From Escherichia coli (GTDB taxonomy: Bacteria > Pseudomonadota > Gammaproteobacteria > Enterobacterales > Enterobacteriaceae), in NCBI RefSeq assembly GCF_048403405.1, contig NZ_CP183129.1: a stretch of DNA of 64,000 nucleotides; one strand, written 5' to 3'. Made by a program: the position numbers and the translations under genes. Positions 6,036-62,730 of this stretch are shown here, piece after piece. Within the stretch, counting starts at the first letter, position 1; the number at the start of each line of letters is the position of its first letter. The notes under the pieces were generated by a model. The model was not told where the DNA came from. It saw only the letters and a program-made list of their open reading frames with translations, and did not search any database.

Positions 6036-6136
<101 letters not shown>

Positions 6137-6370
6137 AAACGATGAGCAATCTGTAGAGTTTGATTCAGACCTTCTATTTTTCCCGCTTATCCGTGCCCCA
6201 TCTCCCATTTTCCCTCACCCGTACCGTCACCGCCTTGTCATCTTTCTGACACCTTACTATCTTACAAATGTAACAAAAAAGTTATTTTTCTGTAATTCGA
6301 GCATGTCATGTTACCCCGCGAGCATAAAACGCGTGAATTCGCGCATTCGGTACAACAAGAGAGATAAACG

Positions 6371-13730: not shown

Positions 13731-14015
13731 TCAGGGCAAGCCGAAGGTAGCCTTTTTTATTTCATAATCCTGTAGATATTCTTCCAGCGGCTTTGCCGTT
13801 CCCAGAGAATGAATTTCACCACTATCTTTATCAATAATAAAAGGTGCGTTACCAGCTAAGCGCGCGGCCTCATCTCCAGATTCAAGAAATTCTTGTGATT
13901 CGAAACAGAAATACCAGCCCTGGCTAAAACGTCCATGCAGAGTGATGACGACAGGGAGATCTGCATCATCAAGGTAATGGTTCGCTTTCGCGAATGCGTC
14001 GTGATAAGTAATCAT
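13731..14015 (-). CDS. yrhB: YrhB (94 aa small protein)
   Basis: ORF track 94 aa MITYHDAFAKANHYLDDADLPVVITLHGRF...; matches recalled YrhB and its position beside ggt. Confidence 0.75.
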   Translation of the reverse strand: MITYHDAFAKANHYLDDADLPVVITLHGRFSQGWYFCFESQEFLESGDEAARLAGNAPFIIDKDSGEIHSLGTAKPLEEYLQDYEIKKATFGLP

Positions 14016-14464
14016 AATTATAATAAATATTATTGTTGATCGTTATATTATTATTCTTGCGTTATACTTTGAGAAAAGACGCGTTCATCTTCGTCAAAGA
14101 TATTATTAAATGCTGGTTTTGAAAAAAGTTCATCGGATAATATACAGTCACGAAATAAGTATCTGCTAATATTTTGTGATTTCTTTTTCAGAACGTCGAA
14201 CGGGATTTTCTTATTTAAGATATCAGAATCTTATGATTCGGGTGAAATTCTAACTAAATCAACATGTCACTAAAATCATCATAGCCATTAGCTATTTCGG
14301 CTAAAATAGAGATTACATGTCTTCGGTCCATCTCACTTAAGGAGTGTAGTTCCGTTGTAAGTTTTTCCATAGCTTGCATTGCTAAGTTTCGAACAAGGAA
14401 TTTTCTGCTGGTAATCTCTAAAAAGATGGCATGGTTTACAATGATTTTTGTTACCTTTTGATTA

Positions 14465-14959
14465 TTATGAACAACTGTCCATGATTTCGTTTAAGAATGA
14501 AGAGAAATCACTAAACGAACTGAATATATTTTCGGTGCCAATATTATCTCTAATTTCAAAAAAGTTACTTTTAATGTCATAAGTAAATATTGAAATGCTA
14601 TCATCCCCGATCACTAACCGTTCTTGTAGATCAGGGTTTATGAAATCATCATTATTTCTATAAAATTCATTTACGGCAAAAAGGTTTTTAACTGAAGGTT
14701 CTGGAATCGAGAGGCTAAATAATCGTAATCCATTAGCTTCGAATCCATCCATTGCTCTTAAAAAAGTAAGATAATCAGGTTGATTCTTAAAAAAAATACT
14801 AACTTCATTACATAACTTCTCCAGGCAATTAGTTGAATTAGAATTAAATTCTATTTGGATTATACTTTCAATAAATGATTCCTTAAGCGGTGCTTCAAAT
14901 GGATAGTCTAAATCATTCATCATTTTTTTTAATTTATTTATTTGGGTCTTAGTCATCAT
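14465..14959 (-). CDS. Putative immunity protein for the upstream Hcp-nuclease effector (164 aa; likely intact equivalent of K-12 yrhA)
   Basis: Start ATG overlaps the stop of the upstream toxin ORF by 4 nt (ATGA); acidic, AT-rich; no recognisable catalytic motif. Immunity role inferred from context. Confidence 0.6.
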   Translation of the reverse strand: MMTKTQINKLKKMMNDLDYPFEAPLKESFIESIIQIEFNSNSTNCLEKLCNEVSIFFKNQPDYLTFLRAMDGFEANGLRLFSLSIPEPSVKNLFAVNEFYRNNDDFINPDLQERLVIGDDSISIFTYDIKSNFFEIRDNIGTENIFSSFSDFSSFLNEIMDSCS

Positions 14960-16134
14960 TTTGTGGGTTCCATAATATTTTTCATGGGAGGATAAATTGA
15001 GCCAGATGGAATGGCCCAGTGAGTGATTTTGCTTTCACCTACTAATATTCCCTTAGCTATTCGTGATTGCATGTTAGTAAAAACTTTATGATATGGTTCG
15101 TTTTCGATTAATACTAAATTTTCGAAATCGTTAGCACCACCATCATCTAGAGATAGTTTATGGTGAACATTATAATTTAGAGGAACATTGCCCTTTCTCA
15201 TTCTTAAAAGGTCTTCGGCGTTGAATCTTTCAGATGCTTCGGAGGTTTTTGCAAGTTTGATAAGAAAATTTTTTCTTACAGTTTTATTAAACTCCTTTCG
15301 TAAGTTAGCTAAGTCTTTTGAAGGTCTCTTAATGTATATTATTTCTATTATGTCTATACCATCAAGAAGTTTTTGTTGACCTCTAAGTTTGCCTAAGTAA
15401 CTATTTATTTCTGTATATGTATCAACATTAGAACGCTTTGTTAAAAGAATAGATGCTGTTGCTATCGCTATGCCCGCTGTTTTTTCATTTAGTATTTGAT
15501 CATAGCCTTTTATTGCATCTCCACCCAGTTTTTCCGCAGTATCTCTGAATCCTTCAATGTTCCCATTGTATACGCCACCAGCAGCAAGTAGCCTGCCAAT
15601 AGCTTTGCTGTTTAACGCTTTTAAACCATTATTTGTTTGGTTTTTTGAATTTGGTAAAACCAAACGGTTATAATTTTCAGGGAGTGCCAAATAGCTGAAC
15701 TCGGTATTTGCGATAAGATGTTGACAGAGGATAAATTCATAACTAACAGTTATTGTTTCTGTATCCAGTTGATTTTGAATGATCTGATGATGAATAGCCG
15801 ATAAAAAAGCGCCTCTTAGTTGTATATAATAATACTTTTCCCATCTACCAAATCTATTGATTCTATAAAAGTCAAATTCCATAAATAATTGCTCATTATT
15901 GTTAATGGAATTAATAAGTAATGGAGTGCTTTTATCAATTAATTTACAAAATGTCATACCCTGTAACTGTGAACCAAGTCCCGTATTAGTAATTCTATTT
16001 GCGAGTGAGAATGTAAATATTTCATCCTCATGCCCACTCTGCCAGCGATTACCTATAGATTCAGTAGTCCCACAACCTGCGGAGATGTTTCCTTGTTGTT
16101 CTCCCGTTACTGTCAGGTAAACAATATTACTCAT
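14956..16134 (-). CDS. yhhZ: Hcp-domain protein fused to a C-terminal HNH-type nuclease toxin domain (T6SS Hcp-effector, 392 aa)
   Basis: N-terminus is Hcp-like (MSNIVYLTVTGEQQGN...KLIDKSTPLL); C-terminus has NYNVHHKLSLDDGGANDFENLVLIENEPYH (HNH/colicin-DNase-like His motif); AT-rich. Confidence 0.75.
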   Translation of the reverse strand: MSNIVYLTVTGEQQGNISAGCGTTESIGNRWQSGHEDEIFTFSLANRITNTGLGSQLQGMTFCKLIDKSTPLLINSINNNEQLFMEFDFYRINRFGRWEKYYYIQLRGAFLSAIHHQIIQNQLDTETITVSYEFILCQHLIANTEFSYLALPENYNRLVLPNSKNQTNNGLKALNSKAIGRLLAAGGVYNGNIEGFRDTAEKLGGDAIKGYDQILNEKTAGIAIATASILLTKRSNVDTYTEINSYLGKLRGQQKLLDGIDIIEIIYIKRPSKDLANLRKEFNKTVRKNFLIKLAKTSEASERFNAEDLLRMRKGNVPLNYNVHHKLSLDDGGANDFENLVLIENEPYHKVFTNMQSRIAKGILVGESKITHWAIPSGSIYPPMKNIMEPTK

Positions 16135-16369
16135 CCATGAAAAGTCCTTTTATGGCATGCTATTTTATCAATGGAACTATTATGCTTGTTAATTGTTATT
16201 TATTTACTCCAGGAAATTGTAGGCGTATATATTAAAAAATAAAATATTACACTTTAGGACGTAATCATGAGGTAAATCTTATATATTTATTGGGAAAATA
16301 AATACATTAAAGGAAGGTATGCCGATTTTGAATGACACCCTTTTTCCATCTCAGAAAAAGGGCACTATC

Positions 16370-16858
16370 TTACTTCACCCGCGCCATATAATACGCATCG
16401 ACATATTCACCATTACGTAATGCGTACTTCTTGCCAGTCCCTTCAATCTCAAATCCAAATTTTTTATAGACCTTAATTGCTGGCGCGTTATCGATGAACA
16501 CCGTTAGCTCAATACGATCTACCCGCAACCAGTTGTCGCACATTTCAATCATCTCTCGCATCAGGGCGCTGGCGACGCCGCGATTCTTCCAACGGGAGTC
16601 GACACAAATACCAAAATCTGCAACATGACTGCGGCGTGGGCGCTGTTGCACGTCAATGGTGAGATGGCCCACGACGTCTCCATCAATACAGGCGACGAGT
16701 TGCTTGATGCCGGGGCGATCGGCGAGTCGCTCCTGCCACATATGATCGGAGGGATGAGGCACCTGTAGCGTGTTGCAATACACCTCCGGCTGGGCGTGAA
16801 TCTGCCTGATGGCCTCGTAATCCCGTGTTTCTGCGTGGCGTATCACTATCTCACTCAT
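16370..16858 (-). CDS. yhhY: GNAT N-acetyltransferase YhhY (162 aa)
   Basis: ORF 16370..16936; start taken at MSEIVIRHAETRDYEAIRQIH (16858); GNAT motif RWKNRGVASALM. Confidence 0.85.
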   Translation of the reverse strand: MSEIVIRHAETRDYEAIRQIHAQPEVYCNTLQVPHPSDHMWQERLADRPGIKQLVACIDGDVVGHLTIDVQQRPRRSHVADFGICVDSRWKNRGVASALMREMIEMCDNWLRVDRIELTVFIDNAPAIKVYKKFGFEIEGTGKKYALRNGEYVDAYYMARVK

Positions 16859-16949
16859 TCCTTTGTCCTCTTTGGGGTAAATGTCCCTTTCAACATCATT
16901 GACTTTCAAATGCGAGTCAAATGCATTTTTTTGCAAAAAGTGTTGGACA

Positions 16950-16979
16950 AGTGCGAATGAGAATGATTATTATTGTCTC
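16950..16979 (+). promoter_or_regulatory. ryhB promoter with Fur box
   Basis: gcgaatgagaatgattattattgtc matches the Fur consensus GATAATGATAATCATTATC and lies immediately upstream of the RyhB 5' end. Confidence 0.75.
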
Positions 16980-17069
16980 GCGATCAGGAAGACCCTCGCG
17001 GAGAACCTGAAAGCACGACATTGCTCACATTGCTTCCAGTATTACTTAGCCAGCCGGGTGCTGGCTTTT
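16980..17069 (+). ncRNA. ryhB: RyhB small RNA (Fur-repressed, iron-sparing regulator)
   Basis: gcgatcaggaagaccctcgcggagaacctgaaagcacgacattgctcacattgcttccagtattacttagccagccgggtgctggctttt matches recalled RyhB; ends in a GC hairpin plus U-run; lies between yhhY and yhhX. Confidence 0.9.
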
Positions 17070-17190
17070 TTTTGATCTTTCGTTTTCAATTTATCCACGG
17101 GAAGTGCTTGTGTTCGTTATGCGCACTCCAGTAGGAACCACGTCCGCTTTGCGCTAAGGTGTAAATAATCACCTTAAAAAGGACGAAATC

Positions 17191-18228
17191 ATGGTCATCA
17201 ACTGCGCCTTTATTGGCTTCGGCAAAAGCACCACCCGTTACCATCTGCCGTATGTACTTAACCGCAAGGATAGCTGGCATGTCGCGCATATTTTTCGCCG
17301 CCATGCGAAGCCGGAAGAACAGGCCCCAATTTATTCCCATATCCATTTCACCAGCGATCTCGACGAAGTGCTAAACGATCCTGATGTTAAGCTGGTTGTT
17401 GTCTGCACCCACGCGGACAGCCATTTCGAATACGCGAAGCGCGCGCTGGAAGCCGGGAAAAATGTGCTGGTCGAAAAACCGTTCACCCCGACGCTTGCCC
17501 AGGCGAAGGAGCTGTTTGAGTTGGCGAAAAGCAAAGGGCTGACCGTCACGCCGTATCAGAATCGTCGCTTTGATTCCTGCTTCCTGACAGCGAAAAAAGC
17601 GATTGAAAGCGGCAAGTTGGGAGAGATTGTCGAAGTGGAAAGCCATTTTGACTATTACCGCCCGGTGGCAGAAACCAAACCTGGACTGCCGCAGGATGGC
17701 GCGTTTTATGGCCTTGGTGTGCATACGATGGACCAGATTATTTCTCTGTTCGGTCGCCCGGATCACGTCGCTTATGACATCCGCAGCCTGCGTAATAAAG
17801 CCAATCCTGACGACACCTTTGAAGCGCAGCTGTTTTATGGCGACCTGAAAGCCATCGTCAAAACCAGCCATCTGGTGAAAATCGATTATCCGAAATTTAT
17901 CGTTCACGGTAAGAAAGGTTCGTTTATTAAATACGGTATCGACCAGCAGGAAACCAGCCTCAAGGCTAATATTATGCCGGGCGAACCGGGATTCGCGGCG
18001 GATGATTCGGTCGGTGTGCTGGAGTATGTCAATGACGAGGGCGTGACGGTCAGAGAAGAGATGAAGCCAGAAATGGGCGATTATGGGCGCGTTTATGATG
18101 CGTTGTACCAAACCATCGCCAACGGTGCGCCAAATTACGTCAAGGAATCTGAAGTTCTTACCAATCTGGAAATCCTTGAACGAGGATTTGAGCAAGCCTC
18201 TCCCTCCACAGTGACTCTCGCGAAGTAA
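17191..18228 (+). CDS. yhhX: Gfo/Idh/MocA-family NAD(P)-dependent oxidoreductase YhhX
   Basis: 345 aa; N-terminal Rossmann motif INCAFIGFGKST. Confidence 0.88.
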   Translation: MVINCAFIGFGKSTTRYHLPYVLNRKDSWHVAHIFRRHAKPEEQAPIYSHIHFTSDLDEVLNDPDVKLVVVCTHADSHFEYAKRALEAGKNVLVEKPFTPTLAQAKELFELAKSKGLTVTPYQNRRFDSCFLTAKKAIESGKLGEIVEVESHFDYYRPVAETKPGLPQDGAFYGLGVHTMDQIISLFGRPDHVAYDIRSLRNKANPDDTFEAQLFYGDLKAIVKTSHLVKIDYPKFIVHGKKGSFIKYGIDQQETSLKANIMPGEPGFAADDSVGVLEYVNDEGVTVREEMKPEMGDYGRVYDALYQTIANGAPNYVKESEVLTNLEILERGFEQASPSTVTLAK

Positions 18229-20934: not shown

Positions 20935-22275
20935 GTGACTACATTAACGCTTGTTTTAACAGCAGTAGGGTCTGTTTTACTGCTGCTGTTTTTAGTCATG
21001 AAGGCGCGTATGCACGCTTTCCTGGCTTTGATGGTGGTGTCCATGGGGGCTGGCCTTTTTTCCGGTATGCCGCTCGATAAAATCGCAGCGACGATGGAAA
21101 AAGGGATGGGAGGCACCCTCGGCTTCCTGGCGGTGGTTGTCGCCCTGGGAGCTATGTTTGGCAAGATCTTACATGAAACTGGCGCAGTCGATCAGATTGC
21201 CGTCAAAATGCTCAAATCCTTCGGTCACAGCCGCGCGCATTATGCCATCGGCCTTGCGGGGCTGGTCTGTGCGCTACCGCTGTTCTTTGAAGTGGCGATT
21301 GTTCTGCTGATTAGCGTTGCTTTCTCAATGGCGCGCCACACCGGTACGAACCTGGTGAAGCTGGTAATCCCATTATTCGCAGGCGTGGCGGCCGCGGCGG
21401 CATTCCTGGTACCGGGGCCAGCGCCAATGCTGCTGGCATCGCAGATGAATGCCGACTTTGGCTGGATGATCCTGATTGGCCTGTGTGCGGCAATTCCGGG
21501 AATGATTATTGCCGGGCCGCTGTGGGGTAATTTCATCAGCCGCTACGTGGAGTTGCATATTCCTGACGACATCAGCGAACCACATCTCGGTGAAGGCAAA
21601 ATGCCGTCCTTCGGATTCAGCCTGTCGCTGATCCTGTTGCCACTGGTGCTGGTGGGGCTGAAAACCATTGCCGCGCGTTTTGTGCCAGAAGGCTCTACCG
21701 CTTACGAATGGTTCGAGTTTATTGGTCATCCGTTTACCGCGATTCTGGTTGCTTGTCTGGTGGCGATTTACGGCCTGGCGATGCGTCAGGGTATGCCGAA
21801 AGATAAAGTGATGGAAATTTGCGGTCACGCGCTGCAACCGGCGGGGATCATTCTGCTGGTGATTGGTGCAGGCGGCGTGTTCAAACAGGTGCTGGTTGAC
21901 TCTGGCGTAGGTCCGGCACTGGGCGAAGCGTTAACCGGCATGGGCCTGCCGATTGCCATCACCTGCTTCGTGCTGGCCGCTGCAGTGCGCATCATTCAGG
22001 GGTCTGCAACCGTTGCCTGTTTAACGGCGGTGGGACTGGTGATGCCGGTTATTGAACAACTGAACTACTCCGGTGCGCAAATGGCGGCGCTGTCGATTTG
22101 TATCGCCGGTGGTTCGATTGTTGTCAGCCACGTTAACGACGCCGGTTTCTGGTTGTTCGGTAAATTTACCGGCGCGACTGAAGCCGAAACGCTGAAAACC
22201 TGGACCATGATGGAAACCATCCTCGGCACTGTCGGTGCCATCGTTGGGATGATTGCGTTCCAGCTGTTGAGTTAA
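20935..22275 (+). CDS. gntU: Low-affinity gluconate:H+ symporter GntU (GntP family)
   Basis: 446 aa polytopic membrane protein, paralogous to the gntT product at 61054..62370. Confidence 0.92.
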   Translation: MTTLTLVLTAVGSVLLLLFLVMKARMHAFLALMVVSMGAGLFSGMPLDKIAATMEKGMGGTLGFLAVVVALGAMFGKILHETGAVDQIAVKMLKSFGHSRAHYAIGLAGLVCALPLFFEVAIVLLISVAFSMARHTGTNLVKLVIPLFAGVAAAAAFLVPGPAPMLLASQMNADFGWMILIGLCAAIPGMIIAGPLWGNFISRYVELHIPDDISEPHLGEGKMPSFGFSLSLILLPLVLVGLKTIAARFVPEGSTAYEWFEFIGHPFTAILVACLVAIYGLAMRQGMPKDKVMEICGHALQPAGIILLVIGAGGVFKQVLVDSGVGPALGEALTGMGLPIAITCFVLAAAVRIIQGSATVACLTAVGLVMPVIEQLNYSGAQMAALSICIAGGSIVVSHVNDAGFWLFGKFTGATEAETLKTWTMMETILGTVGAIVGMIAFQLLS

Positions 22276-22412: not shown

Positions 22413-24512
22413 ATGATGGAGAAACACGGAGCTGAATTGCTTTTACAGCGGATGTTAGGAAATACCACCGCTACTTTCAGGGAAGGGCAATGGGAAGCCA
22501 TAGATGCAGTGGTTAATCAGCGGCGAAAACTGCTGGTTGTACAGCGCACCGGCTGGGGGAAAAGTGCCGTGTACTTCATCGCCAGTAAAATCTTCCGAGA
22601 TCGCGGCGCTGGCCCGACAATTATCATCTCTCCTTTGCTTGCCCTGATGCGTAACCAGGTTGCCGCCGCTGAACGGTTAGGTATTACGGCTGAAACGTTG
22701 AATTCTACAAACAGGGAAGAATGGCAGCGCATTAGCGATAAGTTGCTGCAAGGTGAGGTCGATTGCTTGCTGGTTTCCCCGGAACGTTTGGCAAACCAGG
22801 ACTTTATCGAAACGGTTTTGTATCCTATAGCCGATCGTATTGGCTTGCTTGTTGTCGACGAGGCGCACTGCATCTCTGATTGGGGCCACGATTTTCGCCC
22901 GGATTACCGACGTATATTAGATATTTTGCGCCAACTGCCTGCGAATACCCCTGTTCTGGGTACAACCGCGACAGCGAATAACCGTGTTGTTGAGGATATC
23001 CGTCAGCAATTGGGTGACATTGTGATTCAGCGTGGAACGCTGGCTCGCGAAAGTTTGGCGCTTGATGCCTTAGTCTTAGGAGAACAGTCATCCCGTCTGG
23101 CATGGTTAGCAACGGTTATCCCTCAGTTTTCCAAATCGGGAATTGTTTATACCCTGACGACTCGCGATGCTGAACTTGTCGCCGAGTGGTTAAGGAAAAA
23201 TGGTATCAGTGCATTTGCTTACTACAGCGGCGTGACTTGTGAAGGCGCGGAAGATTCTAATACTGCCAGGGAATATCTGGAGCAGGCACTGCTGGCAAAT
23301 AAAATCAAAGTGCTGGTCGCGACGACGGCATTAGGTATGGGGTTTGATAAACCTGATTTAGGTTTCGTCATTCATTATCAGATGCCGGGGTCTATTGTCG
23401 GTTACTACCAACAGGTGGGGCGTGCCGGGCGTGCTATAGATTCCGCAGTTGGCATATTGCTTTGTGGTGGTGAAGACCGCGCTATTCATCAATTCTTCCG
23501 TGAAAGCGCCTTTCCTGCGGAGGCGCAAATTCATGAAATACTCAACGTACTTAGCGAGAATGACGGTCTTACCCTACGAGGCATTGAACAACGGACGAAT
23601 CTTCGTTATGGGCAAATAGAAAAAGCACTGAAATTATTGGTAGCGGAAAATCCATCGCCTGTGGTGTATACCGAGAAATTATGGCGCAGAACTATCGTCA
23701 GTTTTTCTCCTGATCATGAACGAATTAACCATTTGATGAATCAGAGAAAAAGTGAGCTGGCAGACGTTGAAAGCTATATCACGACCAAGGAGTGCAAAAT
23801 GCAATTTCTGCGCCGTGCACTCGATGAGCCAAGTGCCGAACGTTGTGGTAAATGTAGTAGTTGTCTTCAGCATCCGTTATTGTCGCCCGACATTGATAGC
23901 GGCTTACTCCATGCGGCAAATTTATTTATTAAACACGCTGACCTGCCGTTAAATCTCAATAAACAGGTGGCAGCTGGGGCTTTTACGCAATACGGATTTA
24001 AAGGGAACTTGCCTGCGGGTTTACAAGGATCTACGGGGCGAATCCTTTCTCGTTGGGGAGATTCCGGGTGGGGAAAGCAGGTAGCACAGGAGAAAAAAAC
24101 GGGGCGCTTCAGTGATGAGCTGGTAGAAGCATGTGCGGAAATGGTTCGCCAACGCTGGAATCCGCATCCTGAACCAACCTGGGTATGCTGCGTTCCTTCA
24201 TTAAGACACCTCGACCTGGTTCCTGATTTTGCCCGGCGACTGGCGGCGAAACTTGGCTTACCTTTTATTGATGCCATTGAAAAAGTCGTGGACAATCCAC
24301 CGCAGAAAATGCAGCAAAACCGTTTTCACCAGTGTCAAAATCTCGACGGGGCGTTTGTGATTACCCCTCCTTTGATGCCAGGTCCGGCGTTGCTGGTTGA
24401 CGATATCGTGGATTCTGCATGGACGCTGACAGTTCTGACAGCACTGTTACGCCAGGCAGGTTGCCCGACGGTTTATCCTCTTGCCCTTGCTTCTACCTCG
24501 GTAAAAAATTGA
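22413..24512 (+). CDS. RecQ-family DNA helicase with C-terminal PRTase-like extension (699 aa); candidate toxin/effector of a PsyrTA/RqlHI-like module
   Basis: Motif 0 FREGQWEAI, Walker A TGWGKS, DEAH box VVDEAHCISDWGHDFRPDY, LGTTATA, HYQMPGSIVGYYQQVGRAGR; Zn-binding Cys cluster CKMQFLRRALDEPSAERCGKCSSC; C-terminal LLVDDIVDSAWTLTVL resembles a degenerate PRPP-binding loop. RBS GAGGGAGAAG before ATG. Not present at this locus in K-12. Confidence 0.85.
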   Translation: MMEKHGAELLLQRMLGNTTATFREGQWEAIDAVVNQRRKLLVVQRTGWGKSAVYFIASKIFRDRGAGPTIIISPLLALMRNQVAAAERLGITAETLNSTNREEWQRISDKLLQGEVDCLLVSPERLANQDFIETVLYPIADRIGLLVVDEAHCISDWGHDFRPDYRRILDILRQLPANTPVLGTTATANNRVVEDIRQQLGDIVIQRGTLARESLALDALVLGEQSSRLAWLATVIPQFSKSGIVYTLTTRDAELVAEWLRKNGISAFAYYSGVTCEGAEDSNTAREYLEQALLANKIKVLVATTALGMGFDKPDLGFVIHYQMPGSIVGYYQQVGRAGRAIDSAVGILLCGGEDRAIHQFFRESAFPAEAQIHEILNVLSENDGLTLRGIEQRTNLRYGQIEKALKLLVAENPSPVVYTEKLWRRTIVSFSPDHERINHLMNQRKSELADVESYITTKECKMQFLRRALDEPSAERCGKCSSCLQHPLLSPDIDSGLLHAANLFIKHADLPLNLNKQVAAGAFTQYGFKGNLPAGLQGSTGRILSRWGDSGWGKQVAQEKKTGRFSDELVEACAEMVRQRWNPHPEPTWVCCVPSLRHLDLVPDFARRLAAKLGLPFIDAIEKVVDNPPQKMQQNRFHQCQNLDGAFVITPPLMPGPALLVDDIVDSAWTLTVLTALLRQAGCPTVYPLALASTSVKN

Positions 24513-25714
24513 TGAATCTTTCAGCCAATGCACAAGCAACCCTCCTGCTAACCAGCGATTTTTCTCGCGCGGCGGCGAGTGAGTATAAACCTCTTAGTAA
24601 TAGTGAATGGGGGAAGTTTGCATTATGGCTGAAGCACCAACGTATCAGTCCCGCCGATCTTCTGGTGCCGCAACCGCAAGAGAAACTTACAGGCTGGAGC
24701 GATCCGCGTATTTCTCAGGAGCGTATTCTTGGCTTGCTGGCGCGTGGTCATAGTCTGGCGTTGGCGGTAGATAAGTGGCAACGCGCCGGATTATGGATCT
24801 TAACCCGCGGAGATGCCGATTATCCCGTTCGCTTGAAAAACCGATTGCGAACGGATGCTCCTCCCGTTTTATTTGGCTGCGGGAATAAAGCATTATTGCA
24901 AGCGGAAGGTATGGCGATTGTTGGCTCGCGAGATGCTCCGACTGCCGATTTGCGCTATACCCAACAACTGGCAGCGAAACTGGCCCAACAGGGGATTTGC
25001 GTTATCTCTGGTGGTGCGCGAGGTATTGATGAATGTGCAATGGCGTCGGCACTGGAGGCCGGGGGAACTGCCGTTGGCGTATTAGCTGATAGTTTGTTAA
25101 AAACAAGCACGTTAGTGAAATGGCGTAAAGGGCTTATAGCAGGCAACCTGGTGTTGATTTCACCGTTTTACCCAGAGGTACGTTTCACTGTCGGCAATGC
25201 GATGGCGCGGAATAAATATATTTATTGCCTTGCTGAAAGCGCAATGGTTGTACGTGCGGGAATGACCGGTGGAACGATAACCGGAGCGATGGAGGCGTTA
25301 AAACATCAGTGGCTGCCTGTTCTGGTTAAACCAAATCAGGATGTGCAATCAGCCAATTCACGTTTAGTAGAAAATGGGGCGTCATGGAGTGCTGAACAGG
25401 CTGAGAATGTGACGATCAGACTGCCAGATGTTCCTGGGCTGATGTATGACAGAGCACTCCGTAACGCTCAACCAGAATTGTTTTCGCTGCACGAAGATGA
25501 CGCAAATTACGCAGTAATGCCCGCGCATACCCCTGTCGATTTTTATCAACTCTTTGTGGCGGAACTGGCGATCCTTGCAAAGGAATCGATAAGTATTGAA
25601 AGGCTGGCGTCTTGTACTGGTTTAACCATCGAACAAATTAGTGTGTGGCTGAACCGCGCAGAAGAAGAGGGAAGGGTTATCCGATTGGGCGAAGGTCATT
25701 ATCAGTTCAGGTAA
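24512..25714 (+). CDS. DprA/Smf-like (SLOG-superfamily) protein (400 aa); candidate antitoxin/partner
   Basis: ORF 24419..25714; ATG at 24512 (MNLSANAQ...) overlaps the helicase TGA by 1 nt. DprA hallmarks: DADYPVRLKNRLRTDAPPVLFGCGNKALL, Rossmann segment IVGSRDAPT...ISGGARGIDECAM, C-terminal winged-helix-like region. Confidence 0.85.
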   Translation: MNLSANAQATLLLTSDFSRAAASEYKPLSNSEWGKFALWLKHQRISPADLLVPQPQEKLTGWSDPRISQERILGLLARGHSLALAVDKWQRAGLWILTRGDADYPVRLKNRLRTDAPPVLFGCGNKALLQAEGMAIVGSRDAPTADLRYTQQLAAKLAQQGICVISGGARGIDECAMASALEAGGTAVGVLADSLLKTSTLVKWRKGLIAGNLVLISPFYPEVRFTVGNAMARNKYIYCLAESAMVVRAGMTGGTITGAMEALKHQWLPVLVKPNQDVQSANSRLVENGASWSAEQAENVTIRLPDVPGLMYDRALRNAQPELFSLHEDDANYAVMPAHTPVDFYQLFVAELAILAKESISIERLASCTGLTIEQISVWLNRAEEEGRVIRLGEGHYQFR

Positions 25715-25759: not shown

Positions 25760-26353
25760 TTACCCCTTCATCCACATTCGAATCCCGTCGAGGAACATCT
25801 GGGTTGCCATCATCACCAGAATCAATCCCATCAGGCGTTCAAGTGCATTCACCCCTTTCTCGCCCAGCAGACGTAAAAATAGCGAAGACTGTAGCAGGAT
25901 GACAAAGGTGCCGCCCCAGGCCAGTAGCAGAGCAATTACCAGATGTCCCATCTGATTCGGGTACTGATGAGACAACAACATCAGCGTGGCGAGAATAGTC
26001 GGCCCGGCGACTAACGGAATTGCCAACGGCACGATAAACGGCTCTTCACCTGCCGGAAGCCCGCTGCTATTTCCTGAAGCACTGGGGAAAATCATCTTAA
26101 TGGCGATCAGAAACAGAATGATGCCGCCAGAAATGGAGACGGTTTCTGCCCGCAGGCTAAGAAATGCCAGAATTTTCTCACCCGCAAACAGGAACACCAG
26201 CATCACCAGGAGAGCAATAAGCAACTCTCGCACCATGATTGCCCGCCGTCTTTTCGGTTCAGTATGTTTCAGTACGGACATGAAAATAGGTAGGTTTCCG
26301 AGCGGATCCATAATCAGGATCAATAAAACTGCTGCAGAAATGATTTCATTCAT
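25760..26353 (-). CDS. yhgN: MarC-family inner membrane protein YhgN
   Basis: 197 aa hydrophobic protein MNEIISAAVLLILIMDPLGNLPIFMSVL... Confidence 0.88.
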   Translation of the reverse strand: MNEIISAAVLLILIMDPLGNLPIFMSVLKHTEPKRRRAIMVRELLIALLVMLVFLFAGEKILAFLSLRAETVSISGGIILFLIAIKMIFPSASGNSSGLPAGEEPFIVPLAIPLVAGPTILATLMLLSHQYPNQMGHLVIALLLAWGGTFVILLQSSLFLRLLGEKGVNALERLMGLILVMMATQMFLDGIRMWMKG

Positions 26354-37773: not shown

Positions 37774-38478
37774 ATGAAATTCAATCTATCTAATTTATCC
37801 GCAGTTTTACTCGCATCAGGTATGCTGATGTCAACTGCGGTAACCGCTGCGCCAGGCGATGCATCACAATTTGGTGGTGCGGATACAGACTGGAGCACCG
37901 TTGATTATCCAAAACTCACCGATATGGATAGCAACACCGATGCGATGGGCGGAAACATCCGCTTTACTGGTCGTGTGGTTAAAGCGACGTGTAAGGTTGC
38001 TACAGAATCGAAACAGATTGAAGTGGTACTGCCAGTCGTACCTTCTAACGCTTTCACGGGCATTGATACCGAAGCAACGGGTGCCAGTAACCAGACTGAC
38101 TTCAACATTAAATTGACTGATTGTAGCAATACGGACAGTCAAAATATTGAATTTCGTTTTACTGGCGTAGCAGACGGTGCCAACCAGACGCTTGCCAATG
38201 AAGTGGAAGGAGCTGCTGATGCTGATGGTACTGGCGAAGCGGGAGCTACGGGTGTAGGGATTCGTATTTATTCTAAAAACACGACAACTGATGGCCTGAT
38301 TAAGCTGAACACACAAACTCCCCAGGGGAGTAGTTCTTCAGCAGCCTACGTGATTCCTGGCGATGCAGCCACTCATGATTTTACTGCGGCATTTACCGCG
38401 GGCTATGCTCAGAACGGTAGTACCGTTGCACCAGGTCTGGTGAAATCAACGGCAAGTTTCGTCGTGCTGTACGAATAA
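37774..38478 (+). CDS. Fimbrial major subunit (chaperone-usher pilin, 234 aa)
   Basis: Signal peptide MKFNLSNLSAVLLASGMLMSTAVTAA; conserved Cys pair; C-terminal SFVVLYE resembles a pilin donor-strand-acceptor terminus; RBS aaggaaagg. Confidence 0.8.
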   Translation: MKFNLSNLSAVLLASGMLMSTAVTAAPGDASQFGGADTDWSTVDYPKLTDMDSNTDAMGGNIRFTGRVVKATCKVATESKQIEVVLPVVPSNAFTGIDTEATGASNQTDFNIKLTDCSNTDSQNIEFRFTGVADGANQTLANEVEGAADADGTGEAGATGVGIRIYSKNTTTDGLIKLNTQTPQGSSSSAAYVIPGDAATHDFTAAFTAGYAQNGSTVAPGLVKSTASFVVLYE

Positions 38479-38598
38479 TTACAGCAAGATAATTTCAGGT
38501 TACAGTTACTTGTAACCTGAAATTAATATTACATGTTTATTTGTAATAAATAGACATGCATCAGTAATTACAATTAATTTCATCTACAAGGATGCAGT

Positions 38599-39351
38599 AT
38601 GAGATGGATTTCAAAAAATAAATGTTTTTCGAATAGAAACATTAATTCTTTGCTGAAGACCCAATATATCATAAGGGCCGGTGCTCTATTTTTACTATCC
38701 GCCATATCTATCAATGCTATTGCTGCGGGTGGCTTCGGTCTTGGTTCTACGCGTCTGGTTTATCCATCTGACAGTCAGCAAATTACGCTAAGTGTACAGA
38801 ATGGTGGGGCTAACACCAGCTATTTAATCCAGTCATGGATTGATGACAATCAAAGCAGTAAAAAAAGTCAGGATTTTGTGGTTACGCCTCCTTTATTTAT
38901 GTTACCAACGCGAAAAGAAGCCTCATTGAGGATAATGTTTATTGGTAAATCACAGTTACCGACTGATCGCGAAACATTATTCTGGATGAATGTGAAAGCG
39001 ATTCCGCCAACGGATGAGAAGAATACCCAGAAAAACACGTTACAACTGGCGTTACAAAACAGAATTAAATTATTTTACCGTCCGACTAATTTACCCGTTC
39101 AAGCTGGTAAAGCACGGGATATGCTGCGATTTAAATACGAAGGTAAACAGCTAAGAGTCATTAACCCTTCTCCCTATTATCTGACGGTGACTGGAATCAG
39201 GGTGCAAGGGGCAAAATTACCCAATGCGTTTGTTCCACCGAAAAGTGACGTAACAGTGTCTTCACCAGTGATGCTAGCCGGTGAAATTACTTATCAAACT
39301 ATCAATGATTACGGTGCCACAACGGCCAGGCAAAAGGGAACGATGCAATAA
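38599..39351 (+). CDS. Periplasmic fimbrial chaperone (PapD-like)
   Basis: 250 aa; conserved chaperone segments LGSTRLVYPSDSQ and NRIKLFYRP. Confidence 0.85.
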   Translation: MRWISKNKCFSNRNINSLLKTQYIIRAGALFLLSAISINAIAAGGFGLGSTRLVYPSDSQQITLSVQNGGANTSYLIQSWIDDNQSSKKSQDFVVTPPLFMLPTRKEASLRIMFIGKSQLPTDRETLFWMNVKAIPPTDEKNTQKNTLQLALQNRIKLFYRPTNLPVQAGKARDMLRFKYEGKQLRVINPSPYYLTVTGIRVQGAKLPNAFVPPKSDVTVSSPVMLAGEITYQTINDYGATTARQKGTMQ

Positions 39352-39392
39352 ACCTGGAAGATTAAAACGTTAAAGCAACTCAGGTCAGGGAT

Positions 39393-41984
39393 ATGAACCT
39401 AAAGCTCAGAAAACTCGAACACAGGATGGCAAGGCAGAAGCAGATGAGGCGGTGTATGCTGCTTCTACTGACACTTTTGCCTGCGTGTTCAGTGGCGGGT
39501 ATGCGCTTTAACCCTGCATTCCTGTCGGGTGATACAGAAGCTGTTGCTGATTTATCTCGTTTTGAGAAAGGGATGACATATCTACCTGGTAGTTATGAGG
39601 TTGAAATATGGGTCAATGATTCGCCTTTGACATCACGTAAGGTTACTTTCAAAGCTGATGAGCAGAATCAGTTGATCCCCTGTTTTTCGCTCGATGAGTT
39701 AGTTACTTTAGGAATTAACAAAAGTGCATTGCCGGAACAGGCGCAAGCAGAGGGAAATAATTGTCTCGATTTACGTATATGGTTCGCAGAAGTTCAATAC
39801 ACTCCTGAACTGGATGCGCAACGACTCAAACTGACCTTTCCGCAGGCAATATTAAAGCATGAAGCCCGTGGTTATATTCCACCTGAGGAATGGGATAATG
39901 GTATCCCGGCCATTCTTATTAATTATGATTTTTCTGGCAACAGTGATCGTGGAGACTATGCGTCTGATAGTTATTATTTAAATCTCCGTTCAGGTTTAAA
40001 TTTAGGGGCGTGGCGTTTTCGTGATTATTCTACATGGAGTCGTTCAGGTAATTCACCGGGTAAAATTGCACATGTGAGTAGTACGTTACAACGAGTAATT
40101 ATTCCTTTTAAAAGTGAATTAACACTAGGTGATACCTGGTCTTCATCGGATGTTTTCGACAGTGTGAGTATTCGTGGTGCTAAACTTGAATCCGATGAAA
40201 ACATGCTACCCGATAGCCAAAGTGGTTTTGCCCCCACTGTGCGCGGTATTGCTAAAAGCAATGCTCAGGTAACGATCAAACAAAATGGCTATGTTATTTA
40301 TCAGACATATACTCCACCGGGACCCTTTGAAATCAACGATCTGAACCCTACGTCTTCCGCTGGGGATTTGGAAGTTACGATCAAAGAGTCTGATAATTCC
40401 GAAACTATCTATACCATTCCTTACGCCGCTGTTCCCATTCTTCAACGCGAAGGGCATATTAAATATTCGGCAACTGCCGGTAAATATCGTAGCAATAGCT
40501 ATAATCAAAACAGTCCGAATGTCTTTCAAGGAGATTTGATTTGGGGGTTACCCTGGGATATTACCGCCTACGGAGGGATGCAATACTCAAATAATTATCG
40601 GGCAATAGCACTCGGGCTTGGGTTCAACCTTGGTATGTTTGGTGCGACGTCATTTGATTTAACGCAAGCCAATAGCACGCTTGCCGATGGCAGTAAACAT
40701 CAAGGGCAATCGTACCGTTTCCTATATTCAAAATCGTTAGTGCAGACAGGTACGGCTTTTCAGATTATTGGTTATCGCTATTCGACGGAGGGATTTTATT
40801 CGTTGAGTGATACCACATACAAACAAATGTCGGGTACGGTTATCGATCCAGATACCCTTAATGAAAAAGACTATGTTTATAACTGGAATGATTTTTATAA
40901 TTTACGTTATAACAAAAGAGGAAAGTTTCAGGCAAATATATCGCAACCATTGGGCGAATATGGCTCTATGTATTTGGCGGCAAGTCAACAAACTTACTGG
41001 AATACGAATAATAAAGATACCTTGTATCAGGTCGGCTATAATACGAGTGTACATGGGATTTATTTAAATATTGCTTATAATTATAGTAAGTCACCAGGTT
41101 CAGATGCGGACAGAATCTTATCCGTAAATGTCTCATTGCCGATCAGCAATTGGTTATCACCAGCTGTCGATGGGCGTACTGCGACAAATTCTATGACAGC
41201 AACTTATGGTTATAGTCAGGATAATAGCGGTCATGTAAATCAGTATGCCGGAGTATCTGGATCGCTGCTGGAACAACATAATCTCAACTATAATATTCAA
41301 CAAAATTTTGCCAACCAGAATAATGGCGAAAATGGCTCGGTAGGGATAAATTACCGTGGTACATATGGTTCACTAAATTCTGGATACAGCTACGATAATA
41401 ATGGTAACCAGCAATTTAACTATGGTTTAAGTGGTGCCCTGGTTATTCACGAAAATGGTCTCACGTTAAGCCAGCCGTTAGGAGAAACAAATATACTGAT
41501 AAAAGCACCTGGGGCAAACAATGTAAATGTGGAACGCGGAACGGGGGTTAAAACAGACTGGCGTGGCTATGCTGTCGTACCTTATGCCACGGAATATCGG
41601 CGTAATAATATCTCTTTAGACCCTATGTCTATGAGTATGCATACAGAATTAGATGCTACTACTATGGAAGTGATACCCAGCAAAGGTGCTTTAGTTCGTG
41701 CTGAGTTTAATGCACATGTCGGTATTCGAGGTTTATTTAATGTTCATTATCGTAATAAACCAGTTCCATTTGGTGCGACGGTCAGTGTACCCACTGAGGG
41801 GACAACTCAGATTACAGGAATAGTGGGTGACAGTGGACAGGTTTATCTCTCCGGTTTGCCTTTACAAGGCATAATAAATATACAGTGGGGAGAAAGTTCT
41901 TATCAGCAATGTCGGGCAAACTATCAATTACCGGAAAGTGAGTTGGATAATGCCATTAGCTATGCAAATCTGGAGTGCCGCTAA
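39393..41984 (+). CDS. Outer membrane fimbrial usher protein
   Basis: 863 aa; N-terminal FNPAFL usher motif; beta-rich, size typical of ushers. The exact start within the first ~35 codons is uncertain. Confidence 0.88.
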   Translation: MNLKLRKLEHRMARQKQMRRCMLLLLTLLPACSVAGMRFNPAFLSGDTEAVADLSRFEKGMTYLPGSYEVEIWVNDSPLTSRKVTFKADEQNQLIPCFSLDELVTLGINKSALPEQAQAEGNNCLDLRIWFAEVQYTPELDAQRLKLTFPQAILKHEARGYIPPEEWDNGIPAILINYDFSGNSDRGDYASDSYYLNLRSGLNLGAWRFRDYSTWSRSGNSPGKIAHVSSTLQRVIIPFKSELTLGDTWSSSDVFDSVSIRGAKLESDENMLPDSQSGFAPTVRGIAKSNAQVTIKQNGYVIYQTYTPPGPFEINDLNPTSSAGDLEVTIKESDNSETIYTIPYAAVPILQREGHIKYSATAGKYRSNSYNQNSPNVFQGDLIWGLPWDITAYGGMQYSNNYRAIALGLGFNLGMFGATSFDLTQANSTLADGSKHQGQSYRFLYSKSLVQTGTAFQIIGYRYSTEGFYSLSDTTYKQMSGTVIDPDTLNEKDYVYNWNDFYNLRYNKRGKFQANISQPLGEYGSMYLAASQQTYWNTNNKDTLYQVGYNTSVHGIYLNIAYNYSKSPGSDADRILSVNVSLPISNWLSPAVDGRTATNSMTATYGYSQDNSGHVNQYAGVSGSLLEQHNLNYNIQQNFANQNNGENGSVGINYRGTYGSLNSGYSYDNNGNQQFNYGLSGALVIHENGLTLSQPLGETNILIKAPGANNVNVERGTGVKTDWRGYAVVPYATEYRRNNISLDPMSMSMHTELDATTMEVIPSKGALVRAEFNAHVGIRGLFNVHYRNKPVPFGATVSVPTEGTTQITGIVGDSGQVYLSGLPLQGIINIQWGESSYQQCRANYQLPESELDNAISYANLECR

Positions 41985-42547
41985 TGAATATATTACAAAA
42001 ATTTATTCTATTAATGTTTAGATCATTGTTCATGATGGTGATTTCATATAACGCACTGGCTAACGATACTGTAGTGGTCACATTTACAGGACAATTATTA
42101 GCGAAAACGTGTGATATTACAACTGGAAGTAAAGACCAGCCAGTAAACATGGGAACTTATGACGTCAATGATTTTTTGAATGTAGGGGATGTTTCTGGCA
42201 GCCATACATTTACGATCAATCTGGAAGGATGTCCTACAACAACCAGTACTGTTTATAGTTCAGGAGTAAGTGCTAATGTGCAGTTTACCGGGGATGCTGA
42301 TGCTATAAATACCACTTTATTACGCCTTACTTCCAGCGCGGATAGTGCAACTGGAGTGGGCATCGAAATTTTAGACAGTAATGATAAAATTATAGCAATT
42401 AATAGTGAATCAGGATTCAAAGAGTTAATTTTAAATAATAATGGCGATGCCAGTTTAACCTTTAAACTCCGCTATAAGTCAACTCAGCAAAACGTACATG
42501 CGGGACAGGCGAACGCACTATTGTACTTTGATATAGACTATCAGTGA
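41984..42547 (+). CDS. Fimbrial minor subunit
   Basis: ORF 41975..42547 begins at GTG; ATG at 41984 overlaps the usher stop and gives signal peptide MNILQKFILLMFRSLFMMVISYNALA; pilin-like Cys pair. Confidence 0.78.
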   Translation: MNILQKFILLMFRSLFMMVISYNALANDTVVVTFTGQLLAKTCDITTGSKDQPVNMGTYDVNDFLNVGDVSGSHTFTINLEGCPTTTSTVYSSGVSANVQFTGDADAINTTLLRLTSSADSATGVGIEILDSNDKIIAINSESGFKELILNNNGDASLTFKLRYKSTQQNVHAGQANALLYFDIDYQ

Positions 42548-42554
42548 GGTTAAT

Positions 42555-43079
42555 ATGACACGATATTGGAATTTAATTGCCCTATTATTCTCTGTGATAT
42601 CTATGTCATCCATTGCTGATGATACAACGCATGCAGGTGTTGTACGCATCGAAGGAATTATAACAGCAAAGACTTGTATTGTTGCCGATGAGTCTAAAAA
42701 TTTCACAGTTAACATGCCTGATGTTCCCAGTTATACGGTGAGAAATTCAGGGAGTGTTACTGAAAAAATTGGCTTCTCTTTAAAGTTAACCCGTTGTGGC
42801 AGTGATGTCAGTAATGCCAATGTCACGTTTGATGGAATACCAGTTAGTGAAGACGCAGCCCTATATAAACTGGAAGAGGGCTCAGTCGATGGGTTAGCAC
42901 TGGCTATTTTTGATAACAACAGACAAAGTATTAGTAATGGTATAAAGAGTACAAGTTATGCCCTTACACCATTGGTAGATAATACATTGCATTTCTTTGC
43001 TGCTTATAAAGCTATAAAAAATGATGTACAACCAGGAGATGCGAATGCATCAGTTTCCTTTATCGTCACTTATGATTAA
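42555..43079 (+). CDS. Fimbrial minor subunit
   Basis: 174 aa with signal peptide MTRYWNLIALLFSVISMSSIA; pilin-like C-terminus SFIVTYD. Confidence 0.78.
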   Translation: MTRYWNLIALLFSVISMSSIADDTTHAGVVRIEGIITAKTCIVADESKNFTVNMPDVPSYTVRNSGSVTEKIGFSLKLTRCGSDVSNANVTFDGIPVSEDAALYKLEEGSVDGLALAIFDNNRQSISNGIKSTSYALTPLVDNTLHFFAAYKAIKNDVQPGDANASVSFIVTYD

Positions 43080-43824
43080 CGTGCTGATATGCATTTTAAT
43101 ATGTTGCACAAATGCGCAGGCAGGAGTTGTTGTTGGCGGTACTCGTTTTGTTTACCCAGAAAAGCAGTCATCAATTTCGGTCGAGCTTAAAAATACTGCC
43201 AGTAAAGATATGCTGGTTAAAATTTCCGTGACACCTGATGATGGACGTCAGTTAAAAGGGACACTGGAATCCCAGCCTTTACTTCCAGATAAGGCGTTTA
43301 TTGCCACACCACCATTATTGGTACTTAAACAAGATAAAAATACCAAAATAAGAATCAATCGCGTGGGGGGGCAGTTACCTATAGATCGTGAGAGTTTATT
43401 TATACTGAATATTGCAGCGTTACCTGCTCAGGAACAAAACTCACAGCTTAAGAATGAAAATCAACTCCAGGTGGCTGTACGTAATAGGATGAAAATATTT
43501 TACCGCCCAGAGACGTTATCAGGTAATCCACTTGACGCTTATCAACAGTTACGCTGGTCGCGAAACAATGAAGCTGTCACCGTTTTTAACCCTACGCCCT
43601 GGTATGTGACACTCTATAATTTATCTATTGATGGTAAAAGCATAAATGGTGGCATGGTTGCACCATTTAGTCATCGCCAACAGGATTGGTGTCAGCGGCA
43701 AGGATATTGTGAGATTAACTGGCAAACACTAGATCTTTACAATAATGCCTTACCCGTATGGAGCGTAAAATTAAATGTTTTACAAAATAATGCTATTATG
43801 GGTGCAGTAGCGATACATGGATAA
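43045..43824 (+). CDS. Second periplasmic fimbrial chaperone (PapD-like)
   Basis: ORF 43021..43824; ATG at 43045 follows AGGAGA and gives MHQFPLSSLMINVLICILICCTNAQA; motifs GGTRFVYPEKQ and NRMKIFYRP. Confidence 0.82.
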   Translation: MHQFPLSSLMINVLICILICCTNAQAGVVVGGTRFVYPEKQSSISVELKNTASKDMLVKISVTPDDGRQLKGTLESQPLLPDKAFIATPPLLVLKQDKNTKIRINRVGGQLPIDRESLFILNIAALPAQEQNSQLKNENQLQVAVRNRMKIFYRPETLSGNPLDAYQQLRWSRNNEAVTVFNPTPWYVTLYNLSIDGKSINGGMVAPFSHRQQDWCQRQGYCEINWQTLDLYNNALPVWSVKLNVLQNNAIMGAVAIHG

Positions 43825-43834
43825 CTGGAGAAGC

Positions 43835-44968
43835 ATGATGCTTACTTATTTTTGGGGGAATATAAAAGCAATTTGTATATTGTTTGTTCTTTTAGTCAGT
43901 AGCTGCTATAACATAGTATATGCTGAAGATATGGGACGGGATCGCGCCTTTTGTTATCCTGGTGCACCAGGTAATAATACTACTCCTGCGACATTTTCTT
44001 ATAATTTTGGTACGGTAATTGTCTCAGATGTTAATAATAATTCGCCTGGGACAGTATTACCCTCGCAGGACTGGAAAATAGGGCATTATAAGGCTTATTG
44101 TAATTCTCTGGATGATTATGAGGTTTATTTTTCTGGTGTTTCTGGGATTGATCCGTCAGGAGCGTCTGGTGATCATCAGGGGAGCGATATATTTATTCCT
44201 TTGACTCATGAAATATCTGTCTCGACACATGTAAAGCTCTATAATAAAAATGGCACAATGACAGATAAGGCAGTACCTTTTGACAACTATAGCACCAATT
44301 ATCCAGCAGACAGAAGTAAACCATCAAGTTGGGCCTCAGGAACAGAAGGTTATATAAAAATCAGACTTGATAAAAAAATAATATCCGATATCTCAATAAA
44401 TAACGTATTGCTGGTTTCTTTGTATGTCAGCCAGTTTCCAACAGAGCACGGACCAATTCCAGTATTTAATGCTTATATTGGCAACTTAAATATTGAAGTT
44501 CCACAAGGTTGCACAATTAATGAGGGAACTAGTTTTACCGTTAATATGCCGGATGTCTGGGCCAGCGAATTAAGTCGGGCTGGTGCTGGAGTAAAACCAA
44601 CAGGTATTTCTCCAGTGGCAACCACTATTCCGATAAATTGTACGAACAAAGATATTGATGCCGTAATGACGCTGGTTTTCGATGGCAATATTTCATCAAC
44701 GAGAGATGTTAATGGTCGGCAAAGCATTATTCAGGCGGAGGATAACCCCGACGTTGGCATTATGATTATGGATAGCCAACAGGAATCCGTAGACTTAAAT
44801 GCATTGGCTGCGCATGTTGGTGTGCCATTTAAGTTAGTTGAAAACCAGGCTGAGTCAGCTCAGACGGCAGATGTGACTTTTCTGTCTCTCCCTGTAAGTA
44901 CCACAGGGCGACGCCCTGCTGCAGGCCGTTATAATGCCCTGGCTGTTTTGCGGGTGGAATACCAATGA
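43835..44968 (+). CDS. Putative fimbrial tip adhesin (two-domain pilin-like, about 377 aa)
   Basis: ORF 43817..44968; start likely MMLTYFWGNIKAICILFVLLVSS at 43835; size and terminal position fit a lectin-plus-pilin adhesin. Start uncertain by up to 6 codons. Confidence 0.7.
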   Translation: MMLTYFWGNIKAICILFVLLVSSCYNIVYAEDMGRDRAFCYPGAPGNNTTPATFSYNFGTVIVSDVNNNSPGTVLPSQDWKIGHYKAYCNSLDDYEVYFSGVSGIDPSGASGDHQGSDIFIPLTHEISVSTHVKLYNKNGTMTDKAVPFDNYSTNYPADRSKPSSWASGTEGYIKIRLDKKIISDISINNVLLVSLYVSQFPTEHGPIPVFNAYIGNLNIEVPQGCTINEGTSFTVNMPDVWASELSRAGAGVKPTGISPVATTIPINCTNKDIDAVMTLVFDGNISSTRDVNGRQSIIQAEDNPDVGIMIMDSQQESVDLNALAAHVGVPFKLVENQAESAQTADVTFLSLPVSTTGRRPAAGRYNALAVLRVEYQ

Positions 44969-45312: not shown

Positions 45313-45419
45313 TGCCGGATGCGACGTGAACGTCTTATTGGCCTACAAAATCATGCAAATTCAATATATTGCATAAACCACGTAGGCCTGATAAGCGTAG
45401 CGCATCAGGCAGTTTTTTT
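45313..45419. repeat. REP/BIME element with trailing T-run (terminator-like on + strand)
   Basis: tgccggatgcgacgtgaacgtcttattggcctac ... gtaggcctgataagcgtagcgcatcaggc followed by agttttttt. Confidence 0.6.

Positions 45420-62674: not shown

Positions 62675-62730
<56 letters not shown>

Follow-up and report, generated by a model that had tools for sequence, protein, structure and literature searches.

The segment at positions 16944-17073 of the window (the whole 64-kb stretch of DNA analyzed) is almost certainly ryhB of E. coli, predicted from its sequence to be a gene that stands alone, is repressed by Fur and encodes an Hfq-binding small RNA of about 90-95 nt. The locus is an already known gene, with the promoter and terminator described for RyhB. 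RyhB is among the best-studied bacterial small RNAs and, beyond correct annotation, the locus is of little import. The coordinates of the features at the locus are collected in Table 1.

Table 1. Features of the ryhB locus and its flanks (window coordinates)
Feature	Position	Strand	Basis
yhhY, GNAT N-acetyltransferase	16370..16858	-	ORF list; Pfam Acetyltransf_1, E = 1.1e-18; RefSeq annotation in K-12 and ST2747
64-aa ORF, not a gene	16881..17075	+	Overlaps ryhB promoter and RNA
ryhB -35 hexamer TGGACA	16944..16949	+	Sigma-70 consensus scan; identical in K-12
Fur box GAGAATGATTATTATTGTC (plus strand)	16959..16977	.	16/19 to the consensus read on the minus strand
ryhB -10 hexamer TATTAT	16968..16973	+	Sigma-70 scan; ends 7 nt before the mapped transcription start
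RyhB sRNA transcript	16980..17073	+	Alignment to K-12 b4451; RF00057 over 17009-17073
Single-stranded core GCACGACATTGCTCACATTGCTTCCAGT, target-pairing region of RyhB	17013..17040	+	Near-invariant upper-case Rfam consensus positions
Rho-independent terminator and Hfq-binding 3' module	17048..17073	+	Terminator scan; RNA fold
yhhX, GFO/IDH/MocA oxidoreductase	17191..18228	+	ORF list; RefSeq annotation; Pfam

Identity and anatomy of the ryhB locus

Scanning of the 64-kb window with Rfam 15 gave a match to RF00057 (RyhB) at 17009-17073 on the plus strand, with 83.1 bits against a gathering score of 55 (E = 3.6e-14) and extending over the full length of the model (positions 1-67 of 67). The initial annotation had placed the RyhB sequence here and had named the covariance model as the means of checking it; the placement is borne out by this score and by alignment to K-12 b4451, and nothing was found that speaks against the identity. 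The K-12 MG1655 record places ryhB (b4451) on the minus strand, at 3580922-3581016. The boundaries of this gene were mapped through an alignment of window positions 16860-17195 with K-12 MG1655 and with the best-matching genome, that of strain ST2747, which gave a transcript of 94 nt in the window. The 3' ends of RyhB would be expected to scatter inside the U run, and the end at 17069 given by the initial annotation corresponds to the classical 90-nt form of the RNA, while its start at 16940 includes the promoter.

From the start region of yhhY to the end of the terminator stem, across the promoter and RNA body of ryhB, the window is completely identical to both K-12 and ST2747. The Fur box and the transcription start are thus the same as in K-12, as are the flanks (yhhY divergent, yhhX downstream) and their spacings. 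The sole intragenic difference lies in the terminal T run, which has eight residues (T8, 17066-17073) in the window and nine (T9) in K-12 and ST2747. Three further differences from K-12, two substitutions and a 1-nt insertion, are situated in the spacer between RyhB and yhhX, outside the RNA. The minimum free energy of the whole RNA was no better than that of shuffled sequences (z = -0.59), a value that is usual for a largely single-stranded sRNA; thermodynamic folding alone would therefore have missed it.

Based on a sigma-70 consensus scan, a single promoter-like site was identified in the region 16600-17400. It has the form TGGACA-18 nt-TATTAT and agrees with the consensus at 10 of 12 positions. 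The Fur consensus GATAATGATAATCATTATC was matched at 16 of 19 positions (3 mismatches) by a box spanning -21 to -3 relative to the transcription start. This was the only match with three or fewer mismatches in the 64 kb, where 0.05 would be expected by chance according to shuffled sequences, and the near-consensus Fur box reported earlier for this locus was thereby recovered as a site unique in the window. The predicted box overlaps the -10 hexamer, the geometry that would be expected for repression via promoter occlusion.

The terminator consists of a 7-bp stem-loop at 17048-17066 with five G-C pairs, followed by the T8 run. Hfq-binding sRNA genes have terminators with seven or more T (PMC5558911), a range that includes the run found here, and the binding of Hfq by RyhB requires the 3' hairpin of the terminator together with its U tail (PMC4509938, PMC5558911). 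A second terminator-like site at 17096-17112, with six pairs and a poor T tail, was regarded as a chance occurrence. The core is identical to that of K-12 and to the Rfam consensus core; its role in pairing comes from published work on K-12.

Gene identity, the anatomy of promoter, Fur box and terminator, conservation and synteny were observed directly, whereas the iron response, Hfq binding and target regulation in the window's strain would follow from published work on the K-12 gene. Since the sequence is identical to that of the studied gene, the published mechanism would be expected to apply. In iron-sufficient cells, Fe2+-Fur would occupy the box over the -10 hexamer and block transcription of ryhB. 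When iron is scarce, Fur would leave and RNA polymerase would transcribe from 16980 to the intrinsic terminator. The 3' hairpin and U tail of the RNA would then bind Hfq, and the core of the RNA would pair with mRNAs for dispensable iron-using proteins, sodB and sdhCDAB among them, leading to translational block and decay, by which iron would be spared. Repression of ryhB by Fe2+-Fur and induction of RyhB by iron limitation have been described (PMC4676285), and RyhB is reported to work together with Hfq on sodB and on further mRNAs encoding iron-using proteins (PMC8544716, PMC6191717).

The ORF list and the annotations of K-12 and ST2747 place ryhB between yhhY and yhhX, as had been proposed. 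The orientation had been given as convergent with yhhY and is in fact divergent: yhhY (489 bp, the same length as in K-12) is a minus-strand gene whose start codon, at 16858, lies head to head with the RyhB start at 16980 and is separated from it by 121 bp. The arrangement in K-12 is the same, with the minus-strand ryhB ending at 3581016 and yhhY running on the plus strand from 3581138. On the other side yhhX follows on the same strand as ryhB, 117 nt past the terminator. Identification of YhhY with the Hfq-binding acetyltransferase HqbA was ruled out; HqbA is YhbS, and yhhY is unmentioned in PMC10710024.

The initial annotation had also described ryhB as adjacent to an AT-rich island with a type VI secretion (T6SS) effector. 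The island is real, with a GC content of 0.29-0.36 over about 13750-16250 against about 0.50-0.58 on both sides, but yhhY separates it from ryhB. It contains yhhZ (Hcp-HNH protein), yrhA and yrhB. The 392-aa product of yhhZ (block 14465-16134, minus strand) has an Hcp domain and a weak C-terminal HNH-like hit, and is named an Hcp1-family T6SS effector by PGAP. The yrhA gene follows yhhZ with a 4-nt overlap and is intact in the window (164 aa), whereas that of K-12 is split by IS1E. The yhhZ/yrhA arrangement fits a toxin-immunity pair.

Conservation within E. coli and in other orders

A 601-nt query around ryhB was searched in 5426 complete E. coli genomes. The locus was present in 5424 of them, in every case chromosomal and flanked by yhhY and yhhX, in agreement with the earlier statement that RyhB is to be expected in E. 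coli. The gene is usually single-copy, with a median of one place per genome and one in the window. Altogether the query found 5429 places in the 5424 genomes, a few genomes having two or three and two genomes none; strain 23AR0151 (hits H27 and H37) carries a divergent copy of 89-93% identity.

An exact-match search with the 24-nt core CGACATTGCTCACATTGCTTCCAG (17016-17039), using one genome per species, found it in at least 120 contigs from Enterobacterales, Vibrionales and Aeromonadales. Two or three core loci per genome were often seen among the matches listed, and second copies occur, for example, in contigs of Yersinia, Photorhabdus, Enterobacter and Phytobacter. These homologues and paralogues share the exact core but differ from the locus in the window in having their own 5' regions, hairpin sequences and genomic contexts. 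Most of them also have an upstream Fur box: a box with at least 14 of 19 matches, no more than 110 nt upstream of the core, was present at 102 of the 120 core loci listed from other species, compared with 0.75% of shuffled controls.

The GC-rich 3' hairpin and T run were found in all of the diverse homologues tested (28/28), as a hairpin of 6-12 bp followed by a run of T. Each 3' tail was folded separately, because the two hairpin arms were out of register in some rows of the MAFFT alignment. Among the 28 homologues there were 12 different 5' arms, each with a complementary 3' arm; examples are GCCAGC/GCTGGC, GCCCGC/GCGGGC, GCCGGC/GCCGGC and GGCCAAC/GTTGGCC. These matched arm changes are interpreted as compensatory change. 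Pseudomonas has the Fur-repressed small RNAs PrrF1 and PrrF2, which spare iron in the same way by acting on sodB and sdh-type targets. They are non-homologous in sequence to RyhB and belong to another Rfam family, so that the likeness is functional only.

Readthrough, run length and the overlapping ORF

The Fur-regulated promoter might serve mainly yhhX, in which case RyhB would be the 5' leader of a ryhB-yhhX transcript and the sRNA a by-product of partial termination. This is considered unlikely, although it has some basis in the layout of the locus, where yhhX follows ryhB on the same strand at a distance of 117 nt, with no strong promoter in the intervening DNA according to the consensus scan. 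In published experiments the ryhB terminator was only about 80% efficient on a plasmid, readthrough was frequent in unstressed cells, and ryhB "seems to be co-transcribed" with yhhX, which is stated there as unproven (PMC4509938). Against it, iron stress raises termination, and readthrough RNAs, being extended at the 3' end, lose the ability to bind Hfq (PMC4509938). In addition, the core and the terminator are conserved in species and paralogous loci of many genera; going by these two elements, the sRNA would therefore be the conserved unit. The leader and sRNA readings can be compatible, as the former would add a function to the sRNA rather than replace it.

Retaining RyhB as a stand-alone sRNA gene, there is also a slim chance that its promoter drives yhhX by readthrough as well, and that the T8/T9 difference then tunes the amounts of Hfq-binding RyhB and of readthrough RNA between E. 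coli lineages. If true, this would be of modest interest.

The frequency of the shorter run was determined with a 93-nt query designed so that a one-base gap lowers identity below 99%. The exact 93-nt allele of the window (T8) was found in 437 of 5424 E. coli genomes, about 8% of the complete genomes, and T8 is thus the minority state in this species. The rarity of the allele and the T9 run of K-12 could be taken to mean that ryhB is impaired in the window's strain, the change from T9 to T8 weakening termination or Hfq binding. This is very improbable: T8 exceeds the threshold of seven T for functional Hfq-binding sRNAs (PMC5558911) and is the commonest run length among the 120 RyhB-core loci listed from other species, E. 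albertii included. With a run above the minimum and common in other species, no reason was seen for an altered function, and the difference falls within natural variation. Homopolymer length is also error-prone in sequencing, and it is possible that the count of eight reflects such an error.

That the 64-aa ORF is a true coding sequence for a small protein, which would give the locus a dual function, is scarcely credible even though the frame is open in the window and, with a different C-terminus, in K-12. The initial annotation had dismissed this ORF as spurious, and several observations agree with that judgment. A Pfam search with the ORF gave no match. The ORF begins 99 nt before the RyhB transcript does, ahead of the ryhB promoter as well, and therefore cannot be encoded by the sRNA. 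Its end depends on the T run: with the extra T of K-12 the ORF grows to 95 aa and acquires an unrelated C-terminus. Codon 11 is an in-frame TAG in E. albertii, whose RyhB and ryhB promoter are unaltered. Nor is the frame conserved more widely: among the 120 RyhB-core loci listed, ORFs that run through the core in this frame have a median length of 21.5 aa. Finally, the ORF is absent from the heavily curated K-12 record, which includes peptides as small as YhgO and YhgP.

RefSeq (PGAP) records show no feature over ryhB (16935-17080) in any sampled genome; the gene is named only in the curated K-12 record, as opposed to the automatic RefSeq records of the sampled genomes. With the automatic annotation blank over ryhB, naive ORF calling therefore places the 64-aa ORF there.

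Other RNAs and accessory elements in the window

The statement that ryhB is the only non-coding RNA gene recognizable in the window holds in part. A tRNA search of the window found none, and ryhB is the sole non-coding RNA in the curated K-12 annotation of the syntenic 54 kb. However, the Rfam family ES036 (CssrF) was matched above its gathering score at 45347-45389 on the plus strand (43.6 bits versus 37.6). This site lies between two REP-like palindromes in the REP-rich spacer from the fimbrial operon to glpD, and probably represents an element associated with REP/BIME sequences, not a dedicated regulator. When the whole window was scanned with Rfam at permissive settings, the only additions were REP-related matches below threshold (naRNA4 and a further ES036) and a single snoRNA match that is implausible; the weaker REP-type matches to naRNA4 and ES036 are at 183-220, 6056-6140 and 62677-62716.

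Two accessory regions were observed elsewhere in the window. A chaperone-usher fimbrial operon, seen as a run of same-strand ORFs, occupies 37774-44968 on the plus strand between glgP and glpD. At this site K-12 has only a small yzgL remnant, and ST2747 has the operon with two frameshifted genes. A two-gene islet at 22413-25714 on the plus strand lies between gntU (20935-22275) and yhgN (25760-26353, minus strand). The product of its first gene is a RecQ-like helicase of 699 aa whose C-terminal part gives a PRTase-like hit, and PADLOC assigns it to PsyrT (E = 0, 1068 bits); the second gene encodes a 431-aa DprA/SLOG protein, assigned to PsyrA (E = 2e-201). PsyrT and PsyrA are a known anti-phage defence pair of the toxin-antitoxin type. 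The islet is missing from K-12 and ST2747, and is found at the same site in 1641 of the 5426 complete E. coli genomes.
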